A stretch of 64,000 nucleotides of DNA from a virus, in the IMG/VR virus record IMGVR_UViG_3300009702_000500, positions 28,333 through 92,332 of that record; one strand, written 5' to 3'. Shown here piece after piece: positions 31,506 through 52,019 of this stretch (position 1 is its first letter; each line of letters begins with the position of its first letter). A program made the translations under genes and the position numbers. A model generated the notes under the pieces. The model was not told the DNA's origin. It searched no databases and saw only the letters and a program-made list of their open reading frames with translations.

Positions 31506-32258
31506 ATGAATTGGAAGGTGGCACCTATACAGGGCAGACAATTAAGAGATGTTAGGAGAGAAGACATCTTCGGTGATTTTAGGTTATGTGAAACGTACCG
31601 TGGTGGAGGCGGCTATGATCAGTTTCCTAGGATTTTCAAAAGAAGAACCAAGTCTGCGTTAGGAGACACAGATCTAAGCAAACAATTTGTCGTCCAGTTG
31701 TATGGGTGCCCCCTCGATTGTCCCTATTGTTACGTGACAAGAGATGGAGTGTTTGGTAGATATGTAGAGTATAGTACTAAAGAGCTTATAGCAGCATTCG
31801 AAATGTCTGGCACTAATGTGTTTCATCTTATGGGTGGAGCCCCAGCCATTTATTTGGAGCATTGGTCAGAGGTTGTAGAACAATTACCAGAGTATGCTAT
31901 ATTTCACAGTGATTTGATGTTTATTGAAGGCTTATATAATGTTGACTGGTTATCTAAAATAAATAGACCTAATGTATTATTAGCGGTTAATATAAAAGGT
32001 GTAACACAGGAAGATTTTATGAGAAATACCCGCAGAAGATTAGATTGGACTATGTTATGGAAAAATTTAGATACAGTAGTACAATCAAAAGTAAATTTTT
32101 ATTTTACATTTACAAACCCAGATAAGAATTATATAGACGATTTTAAACTGGAATTAATTAAAAGGCATGGATCTAAAATATTAGAAGATTCATATACAAT
32201 AGACTTAGTAAAGTATGATGCTTTGAAAGGAGACATTGATGAAGTGCCCGGAATGTGA
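31506..32258 (+). CDS. Radical SAM protein of unknown function
   Basis: CxxxCxxC (CPLDCPYC) and GGAP motif; AGGAGG RBS. Confidence 0.8.
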   Translation: MNWKVAPIQGRQLRDVRREDIFGDFRLCETYRGGGGYDQFPRIFKRRTKSALGDTDLSKQFVVQLYGCPLDCPYCYVTRDGVFGRYVEYSTKELIAAFEMSGTNVFHLMGGAPAIYLEHWSEVVEQLPEYAIFHSDLMFIEGLYNVDWLSKINRPNVLLAVNIKGVTQEDFMRNTRRRLDWTMLWKNLDTVVQSKVNFYFTFTNPDKNYIDDFKLELIKRHGSKILEDSYTIDLVKYDALKGDIDEVPGM

Positions 32259-32562
32259 TAAAGTGTTATCAGAATTGACAGATAACAACGGTGATGTGTT
32301 TCTTTGTTGTATGGAGTGTGGGATAGTAATGTCTGGTTATAATTCAGATTATAGAATAGAGTTTTATGATGCTGATGATATTGAGGCTTCTATGCTATAT
32401 GACAAGGATAACATTAAGTTGAAAGAAATATCCATCGGTGATTGTATGGAAAACTATATACATAAATGTTTAAGATGTAATTCGTATGGATTTGAGGTAT
32501 CAGAAGGTACTTTTGAATGTATGAAATGTGGATTTGAATGGGAGGTATTTACCATTGAGTAA
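32236..32562 (+). CDS. Double zinc-ribbon protein
   Basis: CPEC..CMEC and CLRC..CMKC pairs. Confidence 0.7.
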
Positions 32563-33328
32563 TGACTATTACGATACGTTGGGAGTAGCAAAAAATGCAA
32601 CTCAAGAAGAGCTTAAAAAGTCTTATAGAGCGCTGTCTATGAAGTATCATCCCGATAGAAACCCAGATGACGCTGAAGCAGAAGAACGATTTAAGAAAAT
32701 TAATGCGGCTTACTCGGTTCTGTCGGATCCTGAAAAAAGACAGCAATATGATAATAGGGATAACCCCTTTATGAACATGATGCATGGCTGGGGGGATATG
32801 ATGGGCAGACCCAGAAGGCCTGACCCAAATGCTCCCAGACGAGGCAATGATCTTAGATACATAGCAGGAGTACCTCTGTACAAAACGGTTCTTGGTGGGG
32901 ATCATACAATTAAATTTAGTTATCAAGATCCATGTGAGAAATGTAATGGTATAGGTGCTTCTGAAACCAGAATTTGTTCAGAATGTAATGGTAGTGGTAT
33001 GAAATCTATGGTTCAGAACCAGGGGAATATGAGAATAATGTCTTCTTCACCTTGTCCTAAGTGCCAAGGAAGTGGTCGAGAGTCTATTAAAAAATGTGAA
33101 CAATGTGATGGTTCTGGGTTTAAAACTTTAGATAAAGAATTTACATTTAAAATACCAATAGGGATACCTGATGGTCATGTATTATCTTTTGCTAATGAGG
33201 GGTGTTCAGGTGTAAATGGCGGTCCGCCAGGAGCATTGCTTGTGAGAGTAGGAATTATAATGCCAAATGCGCAACGAATGTCTGAAGAGCAGAAGGAAAT
33301 GCTAAAAAATTTACCTTATGGAGAATAA
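32555..33328 (+). CDS. dnaJ: DnaJ (Hsp40) co-chaperone
   Basis: DYY..LGV, KYHPD J-domain, four CxxCxGxG repeats, G.NGGPPG; TTG start after GGAGG. Confidence 0.93.
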
Positions 33329-33331
33329 CAG

Positions 33332-33694
33332 ATGTCAATAACAGTGGCCGCGCGTAAAGCAAAAGCCAGAAGATTACAAAATTGGGCAGCAGAAAAAATA
33401 GCAAAGTTATTGGGATGTAAATGGGGTAAGGATTGTAGTGTGGCTCCTAGAGAAATGGGCCAAAATGGTACTGATGTAAGATTAGTGGGTAGAGCACAAG
33501 AAGACTTCCCTTATTCTGTGGAGTGTAAGTACCAGGAAAGTTGGGCAGTACATGCTTGGATAAAACAGGCTAAAGAAAATCAAAAAGAAGGCACCGATTG
33601 GCTGTTAATATGTAAAAGAAACAATATGAAACCTGTAGTTATAATGGATGCGGAGGCGTTTTTTAAATTGTTAAAGGAGAACAAAGATGTCTAA
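33332..33694 (+). CDS. Holliday junction resolvase-like PD-(D/E)XK nuclease
   Basis: KAK.RR.Q, G.DV, SVECK, W..QA pattern. Confidence 0.75.
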   Translation: MSITVAARKAKARRLQNWAAEKIAKLLGCKWGKDCSVAPREMGQNGTDVRLVGRAQEDFPYSVECKYQESWAVHAWIKQAKENQKEGTDWLLICKRNNMKPVVIMDAEAFFKLLKENKDV

Positions 33695-34850
33695 AAAAGT
33701 TATTAAATTAAGTGCAAGTAGAATAAAGACCTTCTTAGAATGTAAACTTAAGTACAAGTTTATGTATCAAGACAGATTACCAAAGGTATTAAATCCAGCG
33801 TTCAAGATGGGTAATGCTTGTCATGAGTCGTTAGAATTTGCAGGAAATATATGGATGAAGAAGGGCAAGTTTACAAAGACTGATATTAATAAGATTTTGG
33901 AGAAGTATAAGGAAGTATCAGTTAGGGAAGGTATAAGCGATTTTGCGATACATATGAAGGGAGAGGAGTTGGTTAAATCCAGACTAAAAGGGTTTGATTT
34001 AGGCAAAATACTTGGGTTGGAGATCAAATTTGGAATGGGTAAGGGGTCATTAGATATTACAACAGATGATGGAATACCCCTTATTGGCGCTATCGATAAG
34101 TTCATAGAGATAGACTCTGATACAGGGCTCGTAGTAGACTATAAAACTTCTGCTGTGGTTCCTACAGCAGATGATCTGAAACATGATGTACAGCTTTCCA
34201 TCTATGATCTAGTGGCAGCTAAAATACACCCTGAATATAAACGAATTATTCTTAGCTTGGATATGTTAAAGTATGATCCGGTATATACTTATAGAACTGA
34301 AGAGGAAAGGAGGTATTTTTCTGATTATTTAACTATAATACACAAGGAGATGACTAGTTTTACAGAGAAAGACGCTAAACCCACATTAAATATTTTTTGT
34401 CCATGGTGCGAATATAAAGAATTTTGCCCAGAGTATGAAAAAGCGCTTAAGAAATCTGATTACAAATTCTTAAAAACATCTACTATGGAAAGTAGTGAAA
34501 TGTTTAAACAGTGGAAAGACATTAAAAGTCTTATGGCATTGTTAAAAGGCCGTGAACGGGAACTTACTATGTTGATGCAAGAAAGAATACGTGAACAGCA
34601 TGAGCAGATTGAAGAGGGAGGAAAAGAGTTATATATTAGACAAAATGCCCGTGGTAGTTATGATCCAGTAGAAGTAGCAAAGTATGTGCCAGATTATGAA
34701 ACTTTTTCAAAACTGGTATCTACATTGAATAATAAAGCGGTTATGAAGTACGCAGAAACAAATCCAGCATTAAAGAAAAAAATTGAAGAAACAAAACGTG
34801 TTAATTATACCGCACCATTTTTAGCGGTTAAAAATTCTACAAAGAAATAA
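33687..34850 (+). CDS. PD-(D/E)XK exonuclease (Cas4/RecB/AddB-like)
   Basis: LSASRI..F..C..KY, GNACH, G.ID, VDYKT, QLSIY, C.WC....C. Confidence 0.88.
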   Translation: MSKKVIKLSASRIKTFLECKLKYKFMYQDRLPKVLNPAFKMGNACHESLEFAGNIWMKKGKFTKTDINKILEKYKEVSVREGISDFAIHMKGEELVKSRLKGFDLGKILGLEIKFGMGKGSLDITTDDGIPLIGAIDKFIEIDSDTGLVVDYKTSAVVPTADDLKHDVQLSIYDLVAAKIHPEYKRIILSLDMLKYDPVYTYRTEEERRYFSDYLTIIHKEMTSFTEKDAKPTLNIFCPWCEYKEFCPEYEKALKKSDYKFLKTSTMESSEMFKQWKDIKSLMALLKGRERELTMLMQERIREQHEQIEEGGKELYIRQNARGSYDPVEVAKYVPDYETFSKLVSTLNNKAVMKYAETNPALKKKIEETKRVNYTAPFLAVKNSTKK

Positions 34851-34864
34851 GGAGAATTATTATT

Positions 34865-36148
34865 ATGAGTGATCGAATTAAAGTTTTAGCTTATTATGAT
34901 TCACCTACTTGTGCCACTGGTTTTGGTACTGTAAGTAGGAATATTTTTGAAGGGTTGTATCGAACTGGTAGATTTGATATTGAGATTCTTGGTATTAATT
35001 ATTGGGGAGATCCCCATAATTTTCCATATAGGATTTGGCCTACTGGTACAAATAGTCAGAGAGATCCATATGGTCGTAGAAAGATTTGTGGTATGATTCC
35101 TAGAATGGAATTTGATATTTTGTTTTTACTTCAGGATAGTTTTATTTTGGATTTTATGCCAGAATTAATGAATTATATGAAGGCAAACTATACAGGAAAA
35201 TATAAGAGTATTTGTTACTTTCCGGTAGATGGTATTCCAAAAGAACAATGGATTAAAAATGTCGGTGTTGCCGATCATGTGGTGACGTATTCTAATTTTG
35301 GTAAAGCCGAAGCTGAAAAGGCTTGTCCGGAGCTGGGTAAAAACATTGAAATTATTCCTCACGGAGTGAATACTAGTGACTTCTTCCCATTAGATGATGA
35401 AGAAAAATTAAAATTTAGAAAAAGATATTTTGGAAGACATAGTGATAAATTTATTTTTACTAATTTGAACAGAAACCAGCAAAGAAAAGACATTCCTCGT
35501 ACAATTCAAGCGTTTGCTGAGTTTAGAAAACATGTTCCTGAATCTATTTTGTATCTCCACATGGCAAGGCAAGATCAAGGGTGGAATCTACCTGAAGTTT
35601 GTGCATCTTATGGGTTTAATATTAATGATGATGTTATATTTCCTGAAAACTTTGGTCCCAATCAGGGATACCCGATACAGGTAGTCAATATGATCTATAA
35701 CATCAGTGATTGTGTAATTAGCACTACTCTCGGTGAAGGATGGGGGTATTCATGGCATGAGGCTATGGCTACAAAGACGCCTGTTATTATGCCCAATAAC
35801 ACAGCTATTTCAGAAAACATTACCGATGATAGGGGCTGGCTTGTAAAGAGCGGCACAAATCCAAGTTTGTATACGATATTACCACACGATAATGAAGTTC
35901 TTAGACCATTAGTAGATGTTGAAGATATGGTAGAGAAAATGCTTGTTGTGTATGGTGATTATGATGCAGCTATGGATAAAGCAACCAGAGCTTACGAATG
36001 GGCAATTACACAAACAGATTGGCAAAAAGCTGTTGTGCCTAAATGGCTGGCACTCTTTGATAAGGCTTACGAGGAAGTAATTGCTGCTCGCACATCCGGC
36101 GATGAAGAGGACGATAAAGAGAAAAAGATTTCTACAGAGGAATTTTAA
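34865..36148 (+). CDS. Glycosyltransferase, GT-B fold (GT4-like)
   Basis: TGFG.V, IPHGV, NRNQQRKDIP, STTLGEGWG...EAMA. Confidence 0.9.
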   Translation: MSDRIKVLAYYDSPTCATGFGTVSRNIFEGLYRTGRFDIEILGINYWGDPHNFPYRIWPTGTNSQRDPYGRRKICGMIPRMEFDILFLLQDSFILDFMPELMNYMKANYTGKYKSICYFPVDGIPKEQWIKNVGVADHVVTYSNFGKAEAEKACPELGKNIEIIPHGVNTSDFFPLDDEEKLKFRKRYFGRHSDKFIFTNLNRNQQRKDIPRTIQAFAEFRKHVPESILYLHMARQDQGWNLPEVCASYGFNINDDVIFPENFGPNQGYPIQVVNMIYNISDCVISTTLGEGWGYSWHEAMATKTPVIMPNNTAISENITDDRGWLVKSGTNPSLYTILPHDNEVLRPLVDVEDMVEKMLVVYGDYDAAMDKATRAYEWAITQTDWQKAVVPKWLALFDKAYEEVIAARTSGDEEDDKEKKISTEEF

Positions 36149-36199
36149 TTAGAATTATTATGCTTGACAAAATAAAATGTATAAAGAGGATTGTGATAA

Positions 36200-38386
36200 A
36201 TGAAAATAACGGGTATAAAGTATATTGGACCAATTTTCGATCCTTCGGGTTATGCACAGGCATGTAGAGGAAATATAATGGCACTACATAGTCAAGGAGT
36301 GCCATTAACTCTTGCGCCTATTTCTTTTGAACCCACTAGGCCTGACCTGGGAGCGGAAGGTAAAATTTTAAATTCGTTGGTAGATAAGAAGATAGACTAT
36401 AATATAGTATTTATTCATACTACACCAGAGTTCTGGAGCAAGTATAAAGAACCGGATAAAACAAACGTAGGTTATACAATCTGGGAGACTACTAAACTAC
36501 ATCCTGATTGGCCTGGTTATATCAATGAAAATGTAGATAAAGTTCTGGTAGGGTGTACCTGGAATCATGGTGTTTTTAAAGATAGTGGTGTCACTATTCC
36601 CATTGGAGTAGTCCCTCATGGTATAGATATGTCAGAATTCGATGATATCAAAGAATATAACATAGGCGGAGTTTCAAAAGATGACTATGTGTTCTATGAT
36701 ATTTTTCAGTGGTGTTATGATGAAAAAACACGTGTTCTTACTAAGGATGGGTTTAAATATTTTAAAGACTTAAAGTATACAGATTATATAGCTACTTTGA
36801 ATAAAGATACTGATGAGTTAGAATATTACAAGCCTGATAAGATAGTTAAATTTAGACGCAAGGATAAAATGCTGAAATTGAAAGGGACTCAGTTTGACCT
36901 TTGTGTTACACCAGATCACAAAATGGTAGTTAAAGAACATATGAAAGATTCATATAGAGTTTCAAAAACGGATAATTGGCAGTTAAAACCTTTAAATGAA
37001 ATGGTTATAGTTGATCAGAATGGAGATTTAAAGGTTTCTGGTAAATACAGAACAAAGAAAAACTGTATTTGGACTAATTCTTCTGAAAAATCTTTTTCAC
37101 TTCCGGGAAAAAAGGGTGTAGTTTTAAATATGGATTTATTTTTGGAGTTCTTAGGTTGGTATTTATCGGAAGGTTCACTAAACATAATAAAAAGCAATGG
37201 AGCTCATAGAGTAGTTATAACGCAAGTAAAGAGTCAAGAATATAAAAAAGAGATTTGGGACAACATAAAATCTATGGGATTCACACCTATAAATCATGGT
37301 GATAAAGGTATATTATTCAATTCCAAAGACATGTGTTTATATCTTAAACAGTTTGGTGAATGTTATGAAAAGTTTATACCAAAATTTGTAAAGTCCCTAA
37401 GTTCACGACAAATAAAAATACTTTTAACCTCCATGTTTAAAGGTGATGGTAGTTTTCATAAAAATGGGACTTGGTGTAAGTATGTTACTACTTCTAAAAA
37501 ATTGGCGGAAGATATACAGGAGTGTTTATTAAAGATAGGTTATTCAGGTGCGATATCTACTAGTGATCCTACCACAAAGAAGATTGGTAAAATTGATGGT
37601 AGAGAAATTAGAGGTAAACGACTACAATATACCGTATCTGTTAATAGAGAAAACAATGAGCCTAGTATGTATTACGCCGATTTGCAAGAAATAGATTATG
37701 ACGGGTATGTTTATTGTGCCACTGTTCCTAACCATAATATGTTGGTAGAACGTAATGGTAAGATATTATTTTGTGGTAACACCGAGAGGAAACACCCACT
37801 TGTATTGATAAAAGCCTATTGGCACGCTTTTCAGAACAATGAAAATGTAGCGTTGGTGTTGAAAACTTATAGAAGTGACTACAGTGAACCAGAAAAAGAT
37901 GCCATTAGAACTACTATTAAGAGGCTTAAAAAAGTAACCCCTATGGAGAAATACCCCAAGATTTATTTGATTCTTAATTTATTGTCTAACAAAGAGATTA
38001 CTGGCCTACATGCTACAGGGGATTGCTACGTATCTTTTGATAGGGGTGAAGGGTGGGGCCTTGGTCCCTTTACAGCCGCTGCTTGTGGAAATCCTATAAT
38101 AATTACAGGGTTTGGAGGTAGTACAGAATATGCTAAAGAAGACAATTCTTATTTAATAAATTACTCACTTACTCCCGTATTTGGACAGCCTTGGAGCCCT
38201 TGGTATAGAGGTGACCAACTGTGGGCCGAACCAGATGTAAAACACGGTGCAGATCTGATGAGGTATGTGTATGAACATCAAGAAGAAGCTAAACAAAAAG
38301 GTGAAATGATTAAGAAGTATATAGCGGATAACTTTACTTGGAAACATATAGGACAGAAAATAATAAAAGAAATTGAGGAAATTTAA
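36200..38386 (+). CDS. GT4-like glycosyltransferase containing an intein
   Basis: SGYAQA, TIWET, VPHG; W|TERK is restored after intein removal; RGEGWGL. Confidence 0.9.
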   Translation: MKITGIKYIGPIFDPSGYAQACRGNIMALHSQGVPLTLAPISFEPTRPDLGAEGKILNSLVDKKIDYNIVFIHTTPEFWSKYKEPDKTNVGYTIWETTKLHPDWPGYINENVDKVLVGCTWNHGVFKDSGVTIPIGVVPHGIDMSEFDDIKEYNIGGVSKDDYVFYDIFQWCYDEKTRVLTKDGFKYFKDLKYTDYIATLNKDTDELEYYKPDKIVKFRRKDKMLKLKGTQFDLCVTPDHKMVVKEHMKDSYRVSKTDNWQLKPLNEMVIVDQNGDLKVSGKYRTKKNCIWTNSSEKSFSLPGKKGVVLNMDLFLEFLGWYLSEGSLNIIKSNGAHRVVITQVKSQEYKKEIWDNIKSMGFTPINHGDKGILFNSKDMCLYLKQFGECYEKFIPKFVKSLSSRQIKILLTSMFKGDGSFHKNGTWCKYVTTSKKLAEDIQECLLKIGYSGAISTSDPTTKKIGKIDGREIRGKRLQYTVSVNRENNEPSMYYADLQEIDYDGYVYCATVPNHNMLVERNGKILFCGNTERKHPLVLIKAYWHAFQNNENVALVLKTYRSDYSEPEKDAIRTTIKRLKKVTPMEKYPKIYLILNLLSNKEITGLHATGDCYVSFDRGEGWGLGPFTAAACGNPIIITGFGGSTEYAKEDNSYLINYSLTPVFGQPWSPWYRGDQLWAEPDVKHGADLMRYVYEHQEEAKQKGEMIKKYIADNFTWKHIGQKIIKEIEEI
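36713..37780 (+). mobile_element. Intein with LAGLIDADG endonuclease (356 aa) in a glycosyltransferase
   Basis: Starts CYDEKTRVLTKDG; block B VTPDH; FLGWYLSEGS and MFKGDGS; ends VYCATVPNH...FCGN followed by Thr. Confidence 0.92.
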
Positions 38387-39145
38387 GTGAGTACTTTAGA
38401 TAAAATAAAGACTCATTTATTAATTACTGGTAGTGTCAGGTCTGGCACTACCGCAGTGTGTGAATTCTTAAGTAAATCCCCAGGTATTATAATTCCAGCT
38501 GAATTTGCTATGTATAGTGAGTGGGGTGATCCAAATAATTATAGGCGGATTGAGTATATGGTAGGTGCTAAGGTTAATAATCGTATACTTTATTACAAAG
38601 GAATTCATGGTGACTCTTTTGCTAGAAGACTTCATAAAATAAAAGCCACTGGTAAACAAAGCTTGGAAATGTTAGTTAATTTGTGCCCAGATACGGTAGA
38701 AGTATTTGGAGATAAGTTGCCAATAACATACGTCAGTAAGGCAGATAAATTACTTTCTATGTTTGACAATTTAAAAATAATGATTATGATGAGAGATGGA
38801 CGAGATGTAATGGAGTCGCAGGTTCGTCGCGCAAAAGATGCTGATTATGAGGTTTTTTGGCATGAGAAAGATATAAGATCAGCAGAGAGCATTTGGTTAA
38901 ATACTACTAAAGATATTGAAAAGTTAGAAAAAAGTGATAGAATTCTTATTTACAAATATGAAGATTTATTAACTAACCCCTATATGTTTATAGAATCTGT
39001 GTCAAATTTTATAGAAAAGGATGTAAAAATGGTAGAAAACTTCTTTAAACCATCAGAATTTGATTGGCGTATAGAATACCCTGATTTAATGAGTTTTTTA
39101 TCAGATGAATTTAAAGAGAAGTTAAAAAAATTTGGATATCAATAG
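38387..39145 (+). CDS. Sulfotransferase family protein
   Basis: 5'-PSB loop G.VRSGTT; DKLP; RDGRDV..S; YEDL..NP. Confidence 0.85.
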   Translation: MSTLDKIKTHLLITGSVRSGTTAVCEFLSKSPGIIIPAEFAMYSEWGDPNNYRRIEYMVGAKVNNRILYYKGIHGDSFARRLHKIKATGKQSLEMLVNLCPDTVEVFGDKLPITYVSKADKLLSMFDNLKIMIMMRDGRDVMESQVRRAKDADYEVFWHEKDIRSAESIWLNTTKDIEKLEKSDRILIYKYEDLLTNPYMFIESVSNFIEKDVKMVENFFKPSEFDWRIEYPDLMSFLSDEFKEKLKKFGYQ

Positions 39146-39169
39146 AACTATTGGTTCACAGGAGGAAAT

Positions 39170-40162
39170 ATGAGTGTAGTGTTGGTTGGTTTAGGTTATT
39201 GGGGTCCTAATCTATTAAGGGTGCTTAATAAATTAGGAGCTCTAGCCGCAGTGTTTGATATAGATGAGGAAAGATTGAAATTGTTTAGTAGTTTACCAGC
39301 ATATAACGGAGTACATTTTGGTACAGATTGGGAGCGATGTTTAGGTAGAAATGATGTTGATGGAGTAGTAATAGCCACTCCTCCAAGTACTCACTACGAA
39401 ATAGCAAACACAGCTTTATTTACAAATAAAAATGTGTTTATAGAAAAGCCTATGACAGAAAACGTTGAAGAAGCCAAGAGATTAATAAAGTTGGCTGACG
39501 ACATGGATAAAGTGCTAATGGTTGGACATATATTTTTGTATGTACCAGAAGTATTAAAAATAAAAGAAATAATTGATAGTGGTGAAATAGGCGATGTTGT
39601 TTACATCCACGCTTCTAGACTTAATCTTGGTAAGTTTCAAAAAACAAATGTGATAAGTGATCTGTCTCCGCACGACATTTCTATTTTCAATTACCTTCTA
39701 GATGACAATATCACAAGGGTGTATGCTAATGGGTATGGGTTTATAAACAAGGACATTGTAGATGTAGCTAAACTTACCTTTGAATATAGTAAAGGTGTTG
39801 TATGTGATTTACATCTAAGCTGGCTTGATCCGCGCAAAAAAAGAACAACTACCGTTGTAGGTACTAAGAAAATGATTGTGTATGATATGCTTGCTGAAGA
39901 GAAGATAAAAATATATGATAAAGGGGTAGATGTTTTTGATACCAGTGAGCATGGTTCTTATATGCTCGCATACAGACACGGTGATATACATTCTCCAAAC
40001 GTTGAGGTTTGGGAACCTTTACAGAAGGAATGTGAACATTTTTTAGAATGTATTGAATCTAAAAAATTACCAGTAAGTGATGGTGAAAACGGTTTAGCGG
40101 TAGTTAAAGCACTTAATGCTTCTTTAGAATCATTAAAGACTGGAGAATGGGTATGCCTATAA
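39170..40162 (+). CDS. Gfo/Idh/MocA NAD-dependent oxidoreductase (WbpB/WlbA-like sugar 3-dehydrogenase)
   Basis: GLGYWG, IATP..TH, EKP, MVGH, DL.PHD; AGGAGG RBS. Confidence 0.88.
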   Translation: MSVVLVGLGYWGPNLLRVLNKLGALAAVFDIDEERLKLFSSLPAYNGVHFGTDWERCLGRNDVDGVVIATPPSTHYEIANTALFTNKNVFIEKPMTENVEEAKRLIKLADDMDKVLMVGHIFLYVPEVLKIKEIIDSGEIGDVVYIHASRLNLGKFQKTNVISDLSPHDISIFNYLLDDNITRVYANGYGFINKDIVDVAKLTFEYSKGVVCDLHLSWLDPRKKRTTTVVGTKKMIVYDMLAEEKIKIYDKGVDVFDTSEHGSYMLAYRHGDIHSPNVEVWEPLQKECEHFLECIESKKLPVSDGENGLAVVKALNASLESLKTGEWVCL

Positions 40163-40596
40163 AAGATGATGTTGTGATAGGAAAAAGATCTAAGATATGG
40201 CATCCTGAGTTGGTCAATATTTATGGATGTACTATAGGAAATAATACAACAATAGGAGCATTTTGTGAGATTAGAGGGGATGTTGTAATAGGTGATAATT
40301 GTAGACTTCAGGCTTTTGTGTTTATACCTGAAGGTGTGGTTATAGGAAATAATGTTTTTATAGGACCTCATGTGTGTTTCACTAATGATAAATATCCGAG
40401 CGTTGAAGGCGATTGGGAAAGATTGTCTACAATAATAAAGGATAATGTTAGCATAGGGGCAGCGGCCGTTATATGCCCAGGAATTGTAATAGAAAGTGGC
40501 GCTGTAATAGGTGCTGGATCTGTAGTCACTAAGAATGTTCAAAAAAATACTGTAATTATGGGCAATCCAGCTAGGATTACAAGAAAGGATGAGTAA
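40147..40596 (+). CDS. Left-handed beta-helix N-acetyltransferase (WbpD/WlbB-like)
   Basis: Hexapeptide repeats, FTNDKYP, IGAGSVVTKNV, GNPAR. Confidence 0.88.
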   Translation: MGMPIKDDVVIGKRSKIWHPELVNIYGCTIGNNTTIGAFCEIRGDVVIGDNCRLQAFVFIPEGVVIGNNVFIGPHVCFTNDKYPSVEGDWERLSTIIKDNVSIGAAAVICPGIVIESGAVIGAGSVVTKNVQKNTVIMGNPARITRKDE

Positions 40597-41480
40597 TGAG
40601 TAATATAGTATTATTTGCGGTTTGGAATAGGCCTGAGATGTTTTCTATTGTGACGGAAAGTTTAGTAGAAGCATACAATTACTACCCATTTCCAGACCTC
40701 AAGTTTGTTTTTGCAGTGGAAGCACCAAATGACCCTAAAGTATTAGAGTTAATAAGAGATTTTCCATTTCCAGTGGAAGAGGTAATAGTAAGACAACAGC
40801 ACTTTGGTCTGAGTAAAAATATATTAGAAGCAATGAAGTCAGCAATGGACAAGACAGACGATTTTATATTTTTTCAGGCGGATGATATAGTAGTACATAA
40901 AACCTTTTTCAAATTCTACGATGCTTTATTAAATACATATACTGATCCTTTTTCTACCCATACTCTGGCCATCTATAAAGAGGGTGGTGATATAAATATA
41001 GTTAATAAAGGGCACCATTATGATGCGGCCGGAGCTTGTATTTCTAAAGGGTTTTGGCATAAGTATATTAGGGTTTGTTCTAATGAAGCTTTTTATAAGA
41101 ATCGCGCACAATATGTTAATAAACTTGATAATTTATATAAGGCTTCCTTTCCTAGGCCATATAAATTCAAAGCCGGTCAAGGACAATATAATCAGCAGGC
41201 TGGTCTTATTAATAGACTAGTTGATGTTGCGCTTATAGAAGACAACATATACTCAACTATGGTAAATGTAGCAAGGGTACGTAATATAGGGTTCTATGGA
41301 AGAAATCGCCCAGGCGGAGCACTAATAGGTTCCACTTTTGAAGAACGTTTAGAATATTTAAGGGGAGTTATAACGGATAGAGATAGTATTTACGCTCTAA
41401 CTGCCGCTAAACAATATACTGATTATATTAATTTTGATAAAAATTTGGATAATTGGGATGGGAGCATTATTATTAAATGA
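40596..41480 (+). CDS. Putative GT-A fold glycosyltransferase
   Basis: WNRPE, GL..NI, ADDIVV, RVRNIG pattern. Confidence 0.65.
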   Translation: MSNIVLFAVWNRPEMFSIVTESLVEAYNYYPFPDLKFVFAVEAPNDPKVLELIRDFPFPVEEVIVRQQHFGLSKNILEAMKSAMDKTDDFIFFQADDIVVHKTFFKFYDALLNTYTDPFSTHTLAIYKEGGDINIVNKGHHYDAAGACISKGFWHKYIRVCSNEAFYKNRAQYVNKLDNLYKASFPRPYKFKAGQGQYNQQAGLINRLVDVALIEDNIYSTMVNVARVRNIGFYGRNRPGGALIGSTFEERLEYLRGVITDRDSIYALTAAKQYTDYINFDKNLDNWDGSIIIK

Positions 41481-42238
41481 AATTTTCGGCGTGTTTATTA
41501 ACATTGAATGAAGATAGGTGGATTGATCTTTGTATAGAGCATATGTATGATTATGTAGATGAAATAGTGTGTTTAGATGCTGGTAGTACTGATAAAACGT
41601 TGTCAATAATAAGCAATTATGACAAAGTACGTTATTATACTGTACCACAACCATCATCGTTAAGAGGTAGCCCAGGATGGCATGAAGGAGATAGACGTAA
41701 TATACTTCAAGCAGCTGCCAAAGGGGATTGGATCCTATGTTTGGGGTGTGATGAGCTTATAGAGGATGCTGCCTGGCAGAATATACATGATTGGTTAAAC
41801 AACGATGATGTATTAGGATGGGGGTTTTATAGAATCAATTATATGTATAACTTTGATTGGCATAAACCAATTCACCAACCAAATAATGGTGGAGAGGTTA
41901 GAATATATAGAAACTCGCCTAGGATAAAGTGGGAAGTTAACAACGCACATAATTTTCTCAGATATTATAGTGATCAACATTCTGCAAATAGAAATTTACA
42001 TCATAACAGTGTGCGTATGTATGATCATCCTAATGTTATTAATACTAAATACCTTATCCATCATATGCATAGAATAGGGATAAGAGGTCATGACCCTGTC
42101 CATAATAGAAGAGACAAAGTGCCGGGTATAGTGACGGAGGAGTATGTTAAAACACACGGCTTCTATAGAACCAAGGACAATAAGTATTTTAGACCCATAA
42201 AGTATCCAAAAATTTTATATGATAAGGGTATAATATGA
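41477..42238 (+). CDS. GT2-like glycosyltransferase
   Basis: NE..WI, VDEIVCLDAGSTDKT, RN, GDWIL.L..DE. Confidence 0.85.
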   Translation: MKFSACLLTLNEDRWIDLCIEHMYDYVDEIVCLDAGSTDKTLSIISNYDKVRYYTVPQPSSLRGSPGWHEGDRRNILQAAAKGDWILCLGCDELIEDAAWQNIHDWLNNDDVLGWGFYRINYMYNFDWHKPIHQPNNGGEVRIYRNSPRIKWEVNNAHNFLRYYSDQHSANRNLHHNSVRMYDHPNVINTKYLIHHMHRIGIRGHDPVHNRRDKVPGIVTEEYVKTHGFYRTKDNKYFRPIKYPKILYDKGII

Positions 42239-42693
42239 ACCAGAAATTAAAGAATATAAGAGCAATAAAATATAATGCGTCATTGCCCAACCCTACTTAT
42301 AAGTTATTTGGTCAGCATGTTGATGTAGGTGTCGGAAGCTTAAATTTAACTAAACCAGTACATATACGTGAGGGATGTGAATTTGATTTGACTGGTAATA
42401 TTACTATAGGACAACACACGGAGATTTCTAAATATGTTCACTTCTTTACACATAAACATAATTGGCAAGAATCTAGAGGACTTAGAAAAGATAATCAGCG
42501 AGTAGAGGCTATAGACTTAGTTATAGGCGAAGATGTATTCATAGGGGAGTCAGCTCTAATTATTACTGTAAAGAATATAGGAAAGGGTGCTGTGATAGGT
42601 GCAGGCAGCGTGCTTACTAAAGATGTTCCGGAGTACGAGATATGGGCTGGAAATCCTGCTGTTAAAATAGGAGAGCGAAGTGAACAACCTTAA
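42235..42693 (+). CDS. Hexapeptide-repeat acyltransferase
   Basis: IGEDVFIG, IGKGAVIGAGSVLTKDVP, WAGNPA. Confidence 0.85.
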   Translation: MNQKLKNIRAIKYNASLPNPTYKLFGQHVDVGVGSLNLTKPVHIREGCEFDLTGNITIGQHTEISKYVHFFTHKHNWQESRGLRKDNQRVEAIDLVIGEDVFIGESALIITVKNIGKGAVIGAGSVLTKDVPEYEIWAGNPAVKIGERSEQP

Positions 42694-43582
42694 AATAGTG
42701 GGAATAGTAGCACAGGATTGGGCAAATGCTGCGTACAATGTTTTTCAGTCACTAAAACGTTACGGTATGTCTGCTAGTTTGATAACACTTTATAAACATA
42801 AAGGCGGATTTAGTGGTAAGTACGATATAGGATATTGGAATCAACGTAGTCGGGGCAATGATTTAATTAGATCTGCAGATTTGTACATTATATTTGAAAG
42901 TGGGGGCACTATTCCTTTTTTAAAGAGTTTGCCACTACAAAACAGGCCACGAGTTTTAGTAGTAAATTCTAGTTCTTTCTATCATAAGCCAAGTAAGTTT
43001 GATGCTATTCGTCCTTTTGGAGACATTATGGTAGGACTTACTGCTAATTACCCTGTTGACGACATCATTCTGTGTAATCAGCCAGTAGATGAAAACAAAT
43101 TTAAGGTACGTACCAATTATAATCAGATAGGTACACGTGGCTTATGTGCTGGTGCCGCTCCATATATGAATAGCCATAAGACAAAGAAGGGATTATTGAC
43201 AATTGAACATAAAATGCCCTTACATTATATTATGGGTGAGACACATGATACTGCGCTTAAAAGAATGTTGGATGAGTGTGATATATTCACACATGGTATC
43301 TATTTTGCGTATGGATACACTTTAGTTGAGGCCGCTATGATGGCTATTCCTTGTTTTGGCAGTATATTGGACAGAGATAAGAAATATTTACTACTAGATG
43401 GAGAATATCCAGTATACGATATAGGTAGGGAAGGTGAAAAAATATCAGAAATGTTAGACTTTTTTTCACACCAGGAAAATAGAGAGATGGTAGGTAAAAA
43501 ATTGCGACAGTGGGCCTTGAAGTACCACAGTCAGAAAGCATGTTTTGAAATGTGGACAGAAATATTTCAAAAGGTGTTATAG
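42680..43582 (+). CDS. Putative GT-B glycosyltransferase
   Basis: KKG...CDIF...YG...VEAAMM.IP C-terminal GT-B signature. Confidence 0.65.
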   Translation: MNNLKIVGIVAQDWANAAYNVFQSLKRYGMSASLITLYKHKGGFSGKYDIGYWNQRSRGNDLIRSADLYIIFESGGTIPFLKSLPLQNRPRVLVVNSSSFYHKPSKFDAIRPFGDIMVGLTANYPVDDIILCNQPVDENKFKVRTNYNQIGTRGLCAGAAPYMNSHKTKKGLLTIEHKMPLHYIMGETHDTALKRMLDECDIFTHGIYFAYGYTLVEAAMMAIPCFGSILDRDKKYLLLDGEYPVYDIGREGEKISEMLDFFSHQENREMVGKKLRQWALKYHSQKACFEMWTEIFQKVL

Positions 43583-43598
43583 GAGAAAATAAACTACT

Positions 43599-44219
43599 AT
43601 GGATTATAACAAAGTAGAGATAAAAGGACATCAAAGAGCCGGTAATCATTACTTAGCGTATTTAATTAATAATAATTTTTTTAATTATGATAATTATTAT
43701 AGTTTATTTAATAATGGAAATCATAAATTTGGATATGAACATACTTCTTTCAATTCTGATACATTATACATTTATATTTATAGAAATCTTGAAGATACCG
43801 CCAAATCTTTTTTAAAGATTAGAGGCAGGTTTTGTATCGGTACCAGTAAATTGGACGATTTACTGTCAGACAAACCTATGAGGCTATATGCTTCCAAAAA
43901 GGAAGCCGTTGGTATAGTGTTAGATAGGGATGCTATTGAAGCATTTAAAAGGGCTGGCGATAGTGTGCATCGTAGAAGTAATTTTACATTTACGTTTGGA
44001 GATTTAACATTTAGGGAATGGCATTCGAAGCATATATCTTCTTGGACGAATATAAAGAGAGATAATTTAATATTCATCAGATATGAAGATTTAATTCAAG
44101 ATTTTCATAACACTATGTTATATATATCTAGAAAGTTAGGATCAGATAGAACAAATTTTATTAATATGGATAAGAGGTTGGGGGTGCTACACAAAGGTGC
44201 AGATGTATGGACTGGTTAA
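43599..44219 (+). CDS. Sulfotransferase-domain protein
   Basis: G.QRAGNH.L (PSB-like), YIYRN..D...S, W..H...W, IRYEDL. Confidence 0.75.
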   Translation: MDYNKVEIKGHQRAGNHYLAYLINNNFFNYDNYYSLFNNGNHKFGYEHTSFNSDTLYIYIYRNLEDTAKSFLKIRGRFCIGTSKLDDLLSDKPMRLYASKKEAVGIVLDRDAIEAFKRAGDSVHRRSNFTFTFGDLTFREWHSKHISSWTNIKRDNLIFIRYEDLIQDFHNTMLYISRKLGSDRTNFINMDKRLGVLHKGADVWTG

Positions 44220-44848
44220 AATCTGAAATTATAGGGGCTGATAAAACATTAGTGGCTTTTGGAGGAATTGCAAATCAATTAATGATGCCAGTGTTTGAAT
44301 TTTTTAATATATTGAAATCATACAAGTTTAATAAAATATTTATAAGAGATTTAACACAATCTTGGTACTATAAGATAGGCCACGAAAAGATAGCAAAAGA
44401 GTTAATCAATATAATCCCACATAATACTACTAAAATATTTATTGATACTTCATCTGGTGGTTTTGCTTCAATTTTAATTGGTAACATGGTACAAGCAGAT
44501 GTTGTGTTGGCATTTTCTCCTCAAACTTTTTTAGATGTTGATTTTCGTGAAAAATATAATGACAATAGATGGCGTAGTGAAATAAGAAATGTACACTCAG
44601 TTACAACAAATAAAGAGAGTTTAAGATTGTTTGATATGATTTACGATAATGATATTACTAAATATTACATTTACTATTGTAAAAATTTCAAAATAGATGC
44701 TATACACGCAAAAATGATAGCTGATAAAAAGAATTTTACAATGATGCCTCAAAATTGTAATACTCATGTGGTTGTAAAATGGCTGAAACAACATAACTTA
44801 CTTTTAAATATTTTGACAGGAGATAATTTATGGAACAATATGAAGTAA
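44207..44848 (+). CDS. Alpha/beta-hydrolase-like protein (possible glycan acyl-modifying enzyme)
   Basis: T-S-S-G-G elbow-like motif, AFSPQT, D..HA and a C-terminal His. Confidence 0.5.
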   Translation: MDWLKSEIIGADKTLVAFGGIANQLMMPVFEFFNILKSYKFNKIFIRDLTQSWYYKIGHEKIAKELINIIPHNTTKIFIDTSSGGFASILIGNMVQADVVLAFSPQTFLDVDFREKYNDNRWRSEIRNVHSVTTNKESLRLFDMIYDNDITKYYIYYCKNFKIDAIHAKMIADKKNFTMMPQNCNTHVVVKWLKQHNLLLNILTGDNLWNNMK

Positions 44849-45567
44849 TATGTATAGGAACAGGAGAAATAGGTAAACCTTTGTATGAGTTGTTTAATGG
44901 AGTATATAAAACGCTGCCGATAGATCCAGTTAGGTTCTCGGAGAATACGAGTATACAGGCCAAATGTGATTATTTACATATTTGTATACCAGGAGCACTG
45001 AATAATTTTAGCGATGTAGTTTCTGACTATATAGAAAAATATAAACCACATACAGTGTGTATTCATTCTACTGTACCGCCAGGAACTACAAGAGGCATAG
45101 GCTTATTTGTTGATGCGATAGTGATTCATACACCGGTTCATGGTAAACATAGAGGAAATTCTATGAAAAAGGACATGCTAAGATACCCAAAATATTTGGG
45201 AGTTCCAGAAGGTCTTCCAGATCATGATATTAAAATAATTGTGGAACATTTTAGTAGGGTAGGTTTTTATGATATCCGACCGTTTAGAAAACCAGAAACT
45301 ACAGAATGGCTTAAAGTTTTGTCTACTACTTATTTTGGATTACAAATAGCTTGGGCGCAAGAAGTTGAACGTATATGTAATAAATTTAACCTTGATTACA
45401 ATGAGGTGTCCGATTTTTTTTCTATTCAAGAGGATGCTAAAACCCCAGCTTGGCCGGGAGTGATAAAGGGTCATTGTGTCATGCCTAATATAGATATAAT
45501 TCAAGAGGTTTATGATTCTATTGCTGCTGACTTTATAAGGAAATCAAATGATTTGAAGGAGAAATAA
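44830..45567 (+). CDS. Short UDP-glucose/GDP-mannose dehydrogenase family protein (WbpA-like C6 dehydrogenase)
   Basis: IGTGEIG, HSTVPPGTT, E..K, catalytic GHC; lacks the C-terminal domain. Confidence 0.8.
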   Translation: MEQYEVICIGTGEIGKPLYELFNGVYKTLPIDPVRFSENTSIQAKCDYLHICIPGALNNFSDVVSDYIEKYKPHTVCIHSTVPPGTTRGIGLFVDAIVIHTPVHGKHRGNSMKKDMLRYPKYLGVPEGLPDHDIKIIVEHFSRVGFYDIRPFRKPETTEWLKVLSTTYFGLQIAWAQEVERICNKFNLDYNEVSDFFSIQEDAKTPAWPGVIKGHCVMPNIDIIQEVYDSIAADFIRKSNDLKEK

Positions 45568-45571
45568 GTAA

Positions 45572-46738
45572 ATGATTATAAAATTTGTGGATCTAAATCA
45601 GCAATATAAAAGTGTATACTCTGAGATATTAAGTAATATTAAAAATTGTATTGCTAATGGTCAATTTGTTGGTGGTTATTGGGTGGACGGCTTTCAAAAA
45701 GATTTTGCCAAGTTTCATGATATAGAACATTGTGTGGGTGTTGGTTCTGGTACCGACGCATTGTGGTTGGCGTTGCTTGCCTTAGGTATTGGTCCTGGAG
45801 ACGAAGTCTTGGTGCCTGCTAATACTTTTATTGCTACTGCTCTTGCTGTTACTCATACTGGCGCCAAAGTGGTATTTGTAGAAGTAGACCCACATACTTA
45901 TAACATTGACTATGAATACTTAGACAAGTATGTAACTCCTAAAACAAAGGCAGTTATACCAGTTCATTTATATGGTAATCCAGTTGAAATGGATGGCCTT
46001 ATGTTATTTGCTAAAGAACATAATTTAAAAGTGGTGGAAGATTGTGCACAAGCTATTGGTGCTACTTTTAATGACCAGCCTGTAGGTACTTTTGGCGATG
46101 TGGGATGTTTTTCATTCTACCCCACAAAAAATCTTGGCGGGCTTGGACAGGGTGGAGCAATAATTACTAGAGACAAGAAAATAGCAGATAAGATAGAAAG
46201 TATGGCAAACGTAGGTAGAAAAAAAGGATCACACTATGAGTATGTAAACATTGGATTTAATTCAAGATTAGATTCTATAAACGCTTTATTTCTTGATATT
46301 TGTTTAAAAGAAGTAAGATCTTGGAATCTATATAGGCAATCAATAGCACGGCTATATAATACAGTAATAGATGGAATACCACAACTAAGTAGCCAAAAAG
46401 TTTTGGATGTTGCTTCTAATGTATATCATTTGTTTGAGTTAAAATGTCCTGACAAGACTACGCGCGACACCCTTAAATTGTTTTTAGACACGAAAGATAT
46501 TGCTACAGGATTACATTATCCAATACCTTGTCATAAACAGCCAATTTATTCCGATCATTCTGAAGAATCATTTCCAGTGGCTGAATATTTATCTGAGTCT
46601 TTACTATCGTTGCCTATGTACCCTACTCTTCCAGTAGAAGATGCTACGGTGGTTGTGTCAGCAATAAAAGAATTTTTTGAGGCTTCTAGTGTAAATAGAT
46701 CGGCATTAAGGAAGAAGTTATCATGGCGAATAAAATAG
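45572..46738 (+). CDS. DegT/DnrJ/EryC1/StrS PLP aminotransferase (WbpE/WlbC-like)
   Basis: SGTDAL, PVHLYG, EDCAQA, SFYPTKNLG, NSRLD, HYP.P.H, LSLPMYP. Confidence 0.93.
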   Translation: MIIKFVDLNQQYKSVYSEILSNIKNCIANGQFVGGYWVDGFQKDFAKFHDIEHCVGVGSGTDALWLALLALGIGPGDEVLVPANTFIATALAVTHTGAKVVFVEVDPHTYNIDYEYLDKYVTPKTKAVIPVHLYGNPVEMDGLMLFAKEHNLKVVEDCAQAIGATFNDQPVGTFGDVGCFSFYPTKNLGGLGQGGAIITRDKKIADKIESMANVGRKKGSHYEYVNIGFNSRLDSINALFLDICLKEVRSWNLYRQSIARLYNTVIDGIPQLSSQKVLDVASNVYHLFELKCPDKTTRDTLKLFLDTKDIATGLHYPIPCHKQPIYSDHSEESFPVAEYLSESLLSLPMYPTLPVEDATVVVSAIKEFFEASSVNRSALRKKLSWRIK

Positions 46739-47196
46739 AACTTATTGTAAGTGAAATAGATGGTATTATAACAGATCATCTAATACCTATAGATGAATTA
46801 GGAAATGTTCCTTTCAAAGAATTTTGTATGAAAGATTTTGAAGCCATAAATATGATAAAGAAGTTGGGATATAAATTCATCTTTGTCGCTAAAGACAATA
46901 GAATAAACTATCATTTATGTAGAAGAAAGAATATACCTTTCTTTTGGAGCGAGCAAGGAAAGAAAGAGGCTTTTCTCGCGGGGTTAAGAAGATATAATAT
47001 AAGCCTAGAAAATACTCTATATATAGGAAGCTCTTATTCTGATATAGAACTATTTAAAATGGCTCAGGTATCTATTTGTCCTGCTGATGCTGTAACTGAC
47101 ACTAAAGTTCAATCTGATGTAGTATTACAAACTAATGGTGGTTGTGGAGTACTGTGTGAAGTCTATGATGTGTTAAGAAGTAAAACATTAGGATAA
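46723..47196 (+). CDS. KdsC/YrbI-like HAD family protein with degenerate catalytic motifs
   Basis: EIDGIITD, F..KD, CPADA, GG.G...EV; motif I reads ExD. Confidence 0.75.
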   Translation: MANKIELIVSEIDGIITDHLIPIDELGNVPFKEFCMKDFEAINMIKKLGYKFIFVAKDNRINYHLCRRKNIPFFWSEQGKKEAFLAGLRRYNISLENTLYIGSSYSDIELFKMAQVSICPADAVTDTKVQSDVVLQTNGGCGVLCEVYDVLRSKTLG

Positions 47197-51641: not shown

Positions 51642-52019
51642 ATGTCGTTAATTAAAACTAAGGGTGTTGCTTTACCAAAACCTAATTACGAATATATTAC
51701 TAAAGAAGAAGATGCTCGCAGAGCATTGAACGATATATACAGATATAATGAGTCCTCAGTTGATACAGAGTGTACTTCTTTAGACCCATTTATAGCAAAG
51801 ATGACTCTTTTACAAATAGGTACTGTAGATAAGGCATATGTGTTTGATGTAAGAGCTGATACGGATTATAGTGATGTATCTCTTAATTTATTTAAAGATT
51901 ATCTAACTGATAAGAGTAAAACAAAGTTGTTACAGAATGCTGTGTTTGATATGAAACTTATAAAGCATTTGGCGGGATTTTATATTGAAAATATATATGA
52001 CACAATGTTGTCAGAGTAA
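51642..52019 (+). CDS. polA: Family A DNA polymerase, N-terminal 3'-5' exonuclease part (ends at an in-frame TAA)
   Basis: ExoI VDTE, LLQIG, ExoII QNAVFD, YDTML; same frame as the downstream part. Confidence 0.85.
   Translation: MSLIKTKGVALPKPNYEYITKEEDARRALNDIYRYNESSVDTECTSLDPFIAKMTLLQIGTVDKAYVFDVRADTDYSDVSLNLFKDYLTDKSKTKLLQNAVFDMKLIKHLAGFYIENIYDTMLSE

Follow-up and report, generated by a model that had tools for sequence, protein, structure and literature searches.

To which molecule would a bacteriophage that carries an elaborate, predicted soluble glycosylation machinery attach its sugars, and is such a machinery its own? Phages are known to put sugars on DNA, as the T-even phages do in glucosyl-hydroxymethylcytosine (glucosyl-hmC), and in a few cases on virions. 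The question is raised by a run of 14 open reading frames (ORFs) in the virus record IMGVR_UViG_3300009702_000500 of IMG/VR, a linear contig of 92,332 bp, of which bases 28333-92332, a stretch of 64,000 nucleotides, were analysed (the window; coordinates below are window positions unless a locus handle precedes them). An initial annotation had described this run, at 34865-47196, as a tightly coupled 14-gene island for a sulfated, acylated, amino-uronic-acid glycan that decorates virion proteins or, less likely, DNA. The run is real, with all 14 ORFs on the + strand and either overlapping or spaced by 51 nt or less. Profile hidden Markov model searches of the ORFs upheld most of the enzyme families and corrected three gene calls. 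Here, we propose that the island would be one local form of a glycosylation locus present throughout a jumbo-phage clade, working in the cytoplasm on a non-lipid acceptor.

The contig is 34% complete by a CheckV-type estimate, and relatives of 92-234 kb are 34-89% complete; because of these estimates the full genome is probably about 260 kb, that of a jumbo phage. Related contigs were recovered from IMG/VR and JGI with PolA and with GT4a, the first glycosyltransferase (GT) of the island, as queries, and the gene context of relatives was taken from IMG/VR and JGI loci. Island ORFs were scored against Pfam, NCBIfam and PHROG models with the family cut-offs. Operon boundaries could not be drawn from a scan for promoters and terminators.

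Conserved frame and variable cassette

The same gene order recurs in five large relatives and about 28 other viral loci: a PD-(D/E)XK nuclease, the GT-B (GT4) glycosyltransferases GT4a and GT4b, a variable stretch, a HAD phosphatase, the clamp loader, and the polymerase PolA. The nuclease lies directly 5' of GT4a in all related loci examined, and the HAD gene adjoins the clamp loader in 18 of 19 PolA-anchored loci, with 36-73% identity. The GT4 pair (about 60-89% identical) and the HAD gene hold their position in more than 70 contigs that belong to an uncultured clade of jumbo phages. The part from GT4b to HAD measures 8-15 kb in relatives and is a mosaic, with some modules common to pairs of relatives and the remainder differing between them. 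Its ORFs in relatives encode GT2 enzymes (8), methyltransferases (7), and epimerases or dehydratases (6), together with hexapeptide transferases, sulfotransferases, and DegT and Gfo proteins. Judged by gene order and identity, the locus is a conserved frame around a hypervariable sugar cassette. The island had first been taken as inserted among replication genes, a description that does not suit a locus in which the GT4 pair and HAD are fixed clade-wide and only the middle is swappable. The locus is a core feature of a large uncultured jumbo-phage clade; next to a conserved "inner" pair, its "outer" cassette changes from phage to phage in the manner of an O-antigen locus.

Homologues of GT4a number 831, and the best 120 of these are 63-89% identical and all metagenomic, on contigs of up to 334 kb. 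Across the viral loci its identity is 57-79%, and its conservation equals or exceeds that of the polymerase. Homologues with 32-40% identity occur in phages of Tetrasphaera (Actinobacteria) and Synechococcus (cyanobacteria). The clade and the "moraphages" (PMC12619734) are alike, by description only, in DnaJ, core glycosyltransferases, and a predicted Bacteroidota-like low G+C.

Every gene of the contig lies on the + strand, and G+C is uniform along it at 0.31-0.36. A flippase, polymerase, or polytopic membrane protein had been reported as absent and the enzymes as soluble, in agreement with the hydropathy of six islands: a Kyte-Doolittle scan found no protein of this island with more than one hydrophobic segment, and in five related islands at most two weak segments (in one DegT-type ORF of relative G005) and no polytopic protein. 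No initiating phosphoglycosyltransferase, flippase, transporter, polymerase, or ligase appears among the 25 listed of the relatives' 66 Pfam families. Megablast of the island against 50,697 phage records gave no match. No sign of a recently captured, syntenic bacterial locus was seen, and for two island genes the searches gave no close bacterial homologue. On this comparative sequence evidence the locus belongs to the phage lineage and is not a recent host capture.

Candidate acceptors of the glycan

The acceptor that we tentatively favor for the whole island, by analogy with published systems, is a modified pyrimidine of the DNA of the phage itself. The slot separating GT4a from GT4b was compared in 73 non-duplicate loci showing both of them. 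It is occupied by a thymidylate synthase (TS)-family gene in 30 loci (ThyA-like in 21, non-canonical ThyX-like in 6, and canonical ThyX in 3) and by a MazG-like gene in 10, that is, by one or the other in 40 of the 73. The remaining slots are empty or hold only small unnamed ORFs, and in the present phage the slot is an empty gap of 51 nt. The ThyA-like family (e.g., L036:11281-12078 in relative G001, and L029:673-1374) keeps the catalytic Cys, has NQ in place of the RR phosphate-binding pair of ThyA, and carries Asp at the residue equivalent to E. coli L143 and Asn at that equivalent to N177. The deoxyuridine monophosphate (dUMP) hydroxymethylase gp29 of phage SPO1 shares this Asp/Asn combination, and an acidic residue at L143 marks hydroxymethylating as opposed to methylating enzymes (PMC13326640). 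The ThyX-like form (e.g., L026:16308-16928 and L033:5901-6557) is without the RHR and SxRY motifs and was assigned through the ESM atlas, where it scores 0.97 against viral clusters named "FAD-dependent thymidylate synthase". For this 206-aa protein, a model from a two-sequence alignment was unusable, with a predicted local distance difference test (pLDDT) score of 33, and a PDB profile search gave no match. Canonical ThyX proteins score 204-222 bits on PF02511 (e.g., L117:9306-10058), and the MazG-like protein of about 95 aa (e.g., L096:1630-1920) falls below the Pfam cut-off (E 0.0018). No record among the larger contigs searched holds both the ThyA-like and the ThyX-like form. In L098 and L140, radical-SAM and macro-domain ORFs lie beside the ThyA-like slot gene.

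The AlphaFold2 model of GT4a (pLDDT 89) has the two-Rossmann GT-B fold. Its best PDB match is the chlorovirus NY-2A glycosyltransferase 3oy2 (16% identity), followed by BshA, MshA, and sucrose-phosphate synthase, with template-modeling (TM) scores of 0.74-0.80 to 3oy2 and BshA. Such fold searches gave generic GT4 enzymes and do not tell whether the acceptor is DNA, protein, or a small molecule. The structural neighbors reported for DNA arabinosyltransferases are likewise BshA, MshA, and sucrose-phosphate synthase, and the DNA-glycosylation clusters of RB69 and DLP3, whose modification is poly-arabinosyl-5-hydroxycytosine, contain BshA/MshA-like GT4 enzymes, a TS homologue, a HAD phosphatase, and nucleotide-sugar genes (PMC13326640). 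The DNA glycans of metavirome clusters range from one to three sugars, uronic and ulosonic acids among them, and the GT-B enzymes of these clusters occur preferentially with thymidylate synthases and replication genes (bioRxiv 10.1101/2023.12.21.572611). The present locus is like these T-even, RB69/DLP3, and metavirome clusters in its predicted soluble GT-B/GT4-like enzymes with the same structural neighbors, its place among replication genes, its HAD phosphatase, its phage nucleotide-sugar enzymes and, in relatives, a TS-family gene directly beside the transferases; acidic DNA sugars are documented in such clusters. A host-independent acceptor is favored because GT4a homologues occur in phages of both Actinobacteria and cyanobacteria. 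From this comparative context DNA is at least as likely a target as virion proteins, and its lower rank in the initial annotation is not retained in view of the slot genes and of the published clusters of like make-up.

Several points weigh against a DNA acceptor. The contig, 92 kb or about 34% of the genome, carries no TS-like, MazG-like, Mom-like, or methyltransferase gene and, unlike the DNA-glycan clusters, shows no base-modifying enzyme or deoxynucleoside monophosphate (dNMP) kinase. The slot may simply house a deoxythymidine monophosphate (dTMP) synthase, with ThyA swapped for ThyX as in cells, because three relatives hold the canonical ThyX. No Tet/JBP dioxygenase was found in five contigs, in a search without a working positive control. 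At least five transferases plus sulfation exceed any DNA glycan described, and the diacetamido-sugar route, the O-acetylation, and the two sulfotransferases predicted here have no counterpart in the DNA trisaccharides. To our knowledge, sulfated DNA is not known, nor is any DNA glycan longer than three sugars. The cassette is hypervariable, unlike the DNA-glycan clusters; the locus lacks sequence homology to DNA transferases of proven function, and GT4a and GT4b in particular have no BLAST-level homology to the DNA transferases of T-even phages, RB69, or DLP3. In Synechococcus phage S-CBS4 the GT4a homologue lies between portal and head-protease genes, and the solved structure closest to GT4a is the chlorovirus enzyme 3oy2.

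Restriction-site avoidance, at first sight an argument against modified DNA, was dropped as a test for DNA modification, since fully modified T4 and SPO1, which contains hydroxymethyluracil, avoid such sites equally strongly by this measure. In the contig TGCA is avoided, with an observed-to-expected ratio of 0.53 (z -11.5). Avoidance of 4-bp palindromes is phage-specific, with a ratio of 0.09 for ACGT in L037 and of 0.24-0.27 for GGCC in L062 and L053.

Mom-family domains, fused to zinc ribbons, adjoin the GT4 pair in several loci and lie elsewhere in others. Beside the pair stand zinc-ribbon proteins of about 470 aa with CapR homology and a C-terminal Mom-family domain (PF25680, 35-37 bits), found at L033:7723-9135, L040:8557-9924, and L058:16944-18329; zinc-ribbon paralogues are present in 2-3 copies in L053, L060, and L062. 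These zinc-ribbon/Mom-family proteins may be DNA-modifying or homing elements.

Glycosylation of virion proteins, as initially proposed, is a somewhat less likely account. As in mycobacteriophages and giant eukaryotic viruses, the soluble enzymes would build the glycan in the cytoplasm, straight onto capsid or tail proteins or the giant LamG-fibre proteins, and variation in the cassette would serve to diversify the surface of the virion. The number of transferases (five or more), the amino-sugar route, acetylation, the methylation of relatives, and sulfation resemble surface glycans and the glycan clusters of giant viruses, which are clade-specific. The chlorovirus and Megavirinae clusters are likewise virus-encoded, make bacterial-type rare amino sugars in the cytoplasm, and vary between related viruses; unlike them, the present locus serves a phage with a bacterial host, has a putative target, and has a GT4a with only 16% identity to 3oy2. 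We know of no sulfotransferase in the described giant-virus glycan clusters. The match of GT4a to 3oy2 as best solved structural neighbor argues for a virion acceptor, as do the S-CBS4 homologue, accompanied there by a second GT and a methyltransferase, the LamG fibre-like gene that abuts the island, and the retention of both GT4 genes in members with a canonical ThyX or an empty slot. The motif [STV]xSG occurs 51 times in virion-like proteins against 26 in shuffles (z 4.7) and is no more frequent than chance in replication and island proteins; for the LamG protein at 47201 the count is 6 against 1.9 expected (z 3.2), but the motif was defined on the same proteins, so that the enrichment is biased and weak.

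The virion glycosylation of mycobacteriophages (Freeman et al. 2023, Cell Host Microbe, as cited in PMC12619734) likewise uses soluble phage GTs, sometimes with a methyltransferase, and no export machinery; unlike the present locus, it is reported to rely on few transferases without a rare-sugar pathway or sulfotransferase and on cluster-specific accessory genes. Here, clade-core genes lie in a replication module and have no detectable homology to the proven mycobacteriophage enzymes, and no Mycobacterium phage was among the tblastn matches of GT4a and GT4b in the 50,697 phage records. The locus is also repeatedly interleaved with nucleotide-metabolism genes, and conservation of GT4a at or above that of the polymerase would be unusual for an enzyme that tracks a fast-evolving structural protein. 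A virion target, if true, would bring giant-virus-style, self-made glycans to bacteriophages.

A host molecule is an improbable acceptor. The enzymes would remodel either lipid-linked envelope precursors, exported by host flippases, or a small molecule of the BshA/MshA type, and would thereby alter the cell surface (superinfection exclusion, less adsorption to debris) or a metabolite pool. GT4a does match GT4 enzymes that act on small molecules and glycolipids (BshA, MshA, MGlcDAG synthase, PimB, and WaaG), and PHROGs places both GT4 genes in the category "moron, auxiliary metabolic gene and host takeover". Gene sets like those for lipopolysaccharide (LPS) are known from marine phages, for example cyanophage P-SSM2. 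Against this stand the six islands, which encode no initiating phosphoglycosyltransferase, flippase, polymerase, or polytopic protein, and the hosts of the GT4a-bearing phages, Gram-positive Actinobacteria, cyanobacteria, and those of the low-G+C clade, which share few envelope acceptors; moreover, the GT4a family is found only on metagenomic, mostly phage-sized contigs.

It is less probable still that the locus combines two systems, in which the GT4 pair would work with the TS-type, MazG-like, and methyltransferase genes of relatives on DNA, and the cassette with its sulfotransferases on, for example, fibres. The conserved and variable blocks do evolve differently, sulfation and long glycans suit proteins better than DNA, and a LamG fibre-like gene stands at the far end of the cassette. 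The cassette, however, supplies nucleotide sugars and transferases but lacks an evident initiating enzyme; in relative G001 a sulfotransferase lies between GT4b and a conserved methyltransferase, inside the "core" block; and all genes form a single, translationally coupled run.

Intact recent capture of a bacterial O-antigen or capsule locus from the host, suggested by enzyme families that are those of bacterial surface-polysaccharide loci, is hardly credible, since strand and G+C match those of the remaining contig, the genes on either side are phage genes shared throughout the clade, flippase, polymerase, and initiating transferase are absent, the few close homologues of sulfotransferase 1 are all metagenomic, and the WbpB-like protein at 39170 reaches at most 33% identity in 185,579 prokaryote species (one genome each) against 45-72% in phage relatives.

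Whatever the acceptor, the clade offers a tractable system, with two highly conserved transferases, natural variants with and without TS-type partners, and rare-sugar cassettes. A DNA target, if true, would extend the chemistry of nucleic-acid modification.

Island enzymes and a proposed pathway

The predicted products of the island and of its immediate flanks are listed in Table 1; proteins are referred to below by the first position of their genes.

Table 1. Predicted features of the glycosylation locus and its two flanking genes (window positions; scores in bits).
Feature	Position	Strand	Evidence
PD-(D/E)XK nuclease	33687..34850	+	PF12705 85 bits
GT4a, GT-B (GT4) glycosyltransferase	34865..36148	+	PF00534 36 bits, phrog_2170 176 bits
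GT4b, second core GT-B glycosyltransferase, intein-split	36200..38386	+	uninterrupted relative matches phrog_2170
LAGLIDADG intein, 356 aa, in GT4b	36713..37780	+	PF14528, PF14890
Sulfotransferase 1, predicted 3'-phosphoadenosine 5'-phosphosulfate (PAPS)-type fold	38387..39145	+	PF13469 53 bits, PF00685 43 bits
Gfo/Idh/MocA oxidoreductase, UDP-N-acetylglucosamine (UDP-GlcNAc) 3-dehydrogenase-like (WbpB-like)	39170..40162	+	PF01408 87 bits
Left-handed beta-helix acyltransferase 1, candidate sugar N-acetyltransferase	40147..40596	+	PF00132 90 bits
GT-A-like protein	40596..41480	+	weak PF13641, E 0.001
GT2 glycosyltransferase	41477..42238	+	PF00535 45 bits, phrog_13126
Left-handed beta-helix acyltransferase 2, O-acetyltransferase-like	42235..42693	+	PF00132 28.5 bits
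300-aa protein, no family; possible short GT-B-like enzyme	42680..43582	+	motif only
Sulfotransferase 2, divergent	43599..44219	+	PF00685 30.5 bits vs 22-bit cut-off
213-aa protein, alpha/beta-hydrolase-like lead	44207..44848	+	embedding level only
Truncated nucleoside diphosphate (NDP)-sugar dehydrogenase-like protein, 245 aa	44830..45567	+	PF00984 30 bits
DegT/DnrJ/EryC1 sugar aminotransferase, WbpE-like role	45572..46738	+	PF01041 362 bits
HAD phosphatase, KdsC-subfamily-like	46723..47196	+	TIGR01670 61 bits vs 107 cut-off
LamG/DUF2341 fibre-like protein, 1110 aa	47201..50533	+	PF13385, PF10102

The Pfam score of GT4b itself is below the cut-off because a LAGLIDADG intein interrupts the protein. 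Residues 1-171 and 528-728 are about 60-90% identical to uninterrupted proteins of 372-373 aa in relatives, and alignment to these intein-free relatives places the intein at residues 172-527, with Cys first, Gly-Asn last, and Thr at +1. The insert shows all the features of a LAGLIDADG homing intein, and orthologues lack it. GT4b of relative G001 carries another in-frame intein, of 374 codons and at a different site, and GT4a is interrupted by inserts in several loci. In the cassettes of relatives, inteins interrupt an NDP-sugar dehydrogenase and an RmlD/epimerase-like enzyme (L028:6913-8832, G003; L030:5971-8064, G004). Inteins are unusually common in the sugar genes of this clade.

Profile matches predict a rare-sugar route together with two sulfotransferases, much as first described, and both sulfotransferases score above the Pfam gathering thresholds. 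Sulfotransferase 1 has clear GSVRSGTT and RDGRD motifs and only 8 close homologues (61-84% identity), the next best match being at 28%; relative G001 holds a 66% identical orthologue right after GT4b. Neither tblastn against the 50,697 phage records nor a scan of viral contigs found a match to it. In sulfotransferase 2 the phosphate-binding motifs are degenerate, and no homologue was found in the relatives examined. In the literature searched, no paper connects phage sulfotransferases with a phage glycan, and we know of no phage-encoded sulfotransferase whose product has been shown.

Five glycosyltransferases had been counted. The two GT4 and two GT2-type enzymes stand, GT4a and 41477 with scores above the Pfam cut-offs and 40596 by a weak match, and the fifth (42680) is proposed from a motif. 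The protein at 40596 has orthologues (31-63% identity) in relative G003 and in 12 of 30 viral loci, just after GT4b or a methyltransferase. For the protein at 42680 no match was found in Pfam, NCBIfam, PHROG, or PDB; its C-terminal YGYTLVEAAMMAIPCFGS motif was judged by eye to follow the E..A..G.P pattern of GT-B enzymes, and two phage loci hold a weak relative at 27-30% identity. The ORF called hydrolase-like, at 44207, is present, and its identity as a hydrolase is an embedding-level lead: Pfam, NCBIfam, and PHROG gave no family match, a structure search a weak match to LicC (E 0.0075), and its nearest ESM-atlas clusters (0.95) are unnamed, with Hydrolase_4 or Asp2 in 11% of members.

The Gfo/Idh/MocA dehydrogenase, the DegT aminotransferase, and the two hexapeptide acyltransferases are borne out by Pfam scores above the cut-offs, as is the HAD phosphatase at 46723. 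The best NCBIfam model of the 39170 protein is that of the archaeal UDP-GlcNAc 3-dehydrogenase, NF040723, at 189 bits against a cut-off of 450 bits. The acyltransferase at 40147 scores 71 bits on the NeuD/PglB/VioB subfamily, below the cut-off, and for the one at 42235 the best NCBIfam models are O-acetyltransferases of the WbbJ/WcaF type, also below their cut-offs. The DegT protein at 45572 reaches no NCBIfam equivalog cut-off and is 49-59% identical to proteins of phage relatives. The gene at 44830 had been read as a C6 dehydrogenase, and the glycan as containing uronic acid. The encoded protein comprises the NAD-binding and central domains, lacks the C-terminal UDP-binding domain, and scores 52 bits on TIGR03026 against a cut-off of 190 bits, aligning to model positions 76-289 of 413. 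It keeps GxGxxG (GTGEIG) and the Cys of KGHC, a candidate catalytic residue; the next gene starts 4 nt after its stop, and a 54% identical orthologue occurs in locus L041. Uronic-acid formation is doubtful because the domain is absent and the score far below the cut-off, and neither the C6 dehydrogenase nor a firm uronic acid is upheld.

The set resembles the WbpA/B/E/D/I route of Pseudomonas and the archaeal UDP-GlcNAc 3-dehydrogenase route, which lead to 2,3-diacetamido-2,3-dideoxy-(gluc/mann)uronic acid, in that a 3-dehydrogenase-like Gfo/Idh/MocA protein, a DegT protein, and a candidate hexapeptide N-acetyltransferase are present. Unlike that route, it reaches no equivalog cut-off, its 6-dehydrogenase is without the UDP-binding domain, a 2-epimerase is absent, and its genes are scattered among transferases and not contiguous. 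The full-length UDP-GlcNAc 6-dehydrogenase that the WbpA route requires is not encoded in the island.

The KdsC-like call for the last gene of the island survives as a HAD phosphatase and fails as KdsC, with a TIGR01670 score below the cut-off (Table 1) and 51 bits on PRK09484 against a cut-off of 208. No Kdo-pathway family occurs among the Pfam and NCBIfam matches of the island ORFs. From its conserved position the HAD gene appears to be a flank gene and is not clearly part of the sugar pathway.

In the proposed pathway, host UDP-GlcNAc would be oxidized at C3 by the 39170 protein, aminated by 45572, and N-acetylated by 40147 to give a 2,3-diacetamido sugar; a further oxidation to a uronic acid, for which the truncated 44830 protein would be needed, is doubtful. 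The conserved inner sugars would be added by GT4a and GT4b, and 40596, 41477, and perhaps 42680 would extend the chain. The 42235 protein would then O-acetylate the glycan, and both sulfotransferases would add sulfate from host PAPS. Attached to DNA, such a glycan would amount to a hypermodification of the T-even, RB69, or DLP3 type, unusually elaborate and variable. In its fullest form, a DNA oligosaccharide that varies within the clade under host-nuclease pressure and here bears diacetamido sugars together with O-acetyl groups and sulfate, this proposal is speculative and on balance unlikely. If true, it would add sulfate to nucleic-acid modifications for the first time and would far exceed known DNA glycans in complexity, and the cassette would diversify like an O-antigen locus in response to host nucleases.

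Neighboring genes

The replication-gene flanks are as originally claimed, with the PD-(D/E)XK nuclease on the left and the clamp loader, exonuclease, and PolA on the right. The left neighbors are the clamp, a UvsX-like recombinase, DnaB, primase, a radical SAM protein, DnaJ, and two PD-(D/E)XK nucleases; on the right follow the LamG/DUF2341 protein, the clamp loader, a 3'-5' exonuclease, PolA, dUTPase, and an intein-rich ribonucleotide reductase.

Giant proteins encoded upstream, at 18034 and 21287, are paralogues of the LamG protein at 47201, which is found in some relatives and absent in G002, G004, and G005, and may stand outside the island pathway. Together with this LamG protein, giant ORFs of 693-2962 aa at 666-21285 encode LamG, DUF2341, and F5/8 type C domains and a weak GH130-like stretch, and PHROGs gave no match for 15 large ORFs upstream of the island. 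Judged by these domains, the giant ORFs probably encode fibres or further kinds of virion protein that bear carbohydrate-binding modules.

The ribonucleotide reductase ORF (54010-59826) encodes 1938 aa, is 92% identical in the closest relative, G001, and contains four intein-splicing stretches with LAGLIDADG, HNH_3, and Hom_end domains. The radical SAM protein of 250 aa (31506-32258; Radical_SAM and Fer4_12) is 51-65% conserved in three relatives, and the DnaJ homologue of the replication module lies at 32528-33328. The family A polymerase is split into a 3'-5' exonuclease of 125 aa (51642-52019) and a polymerase of 501 aa (52044-53549), and both genes are kept in 17-19 of the 19 PolA-anchored relatives.

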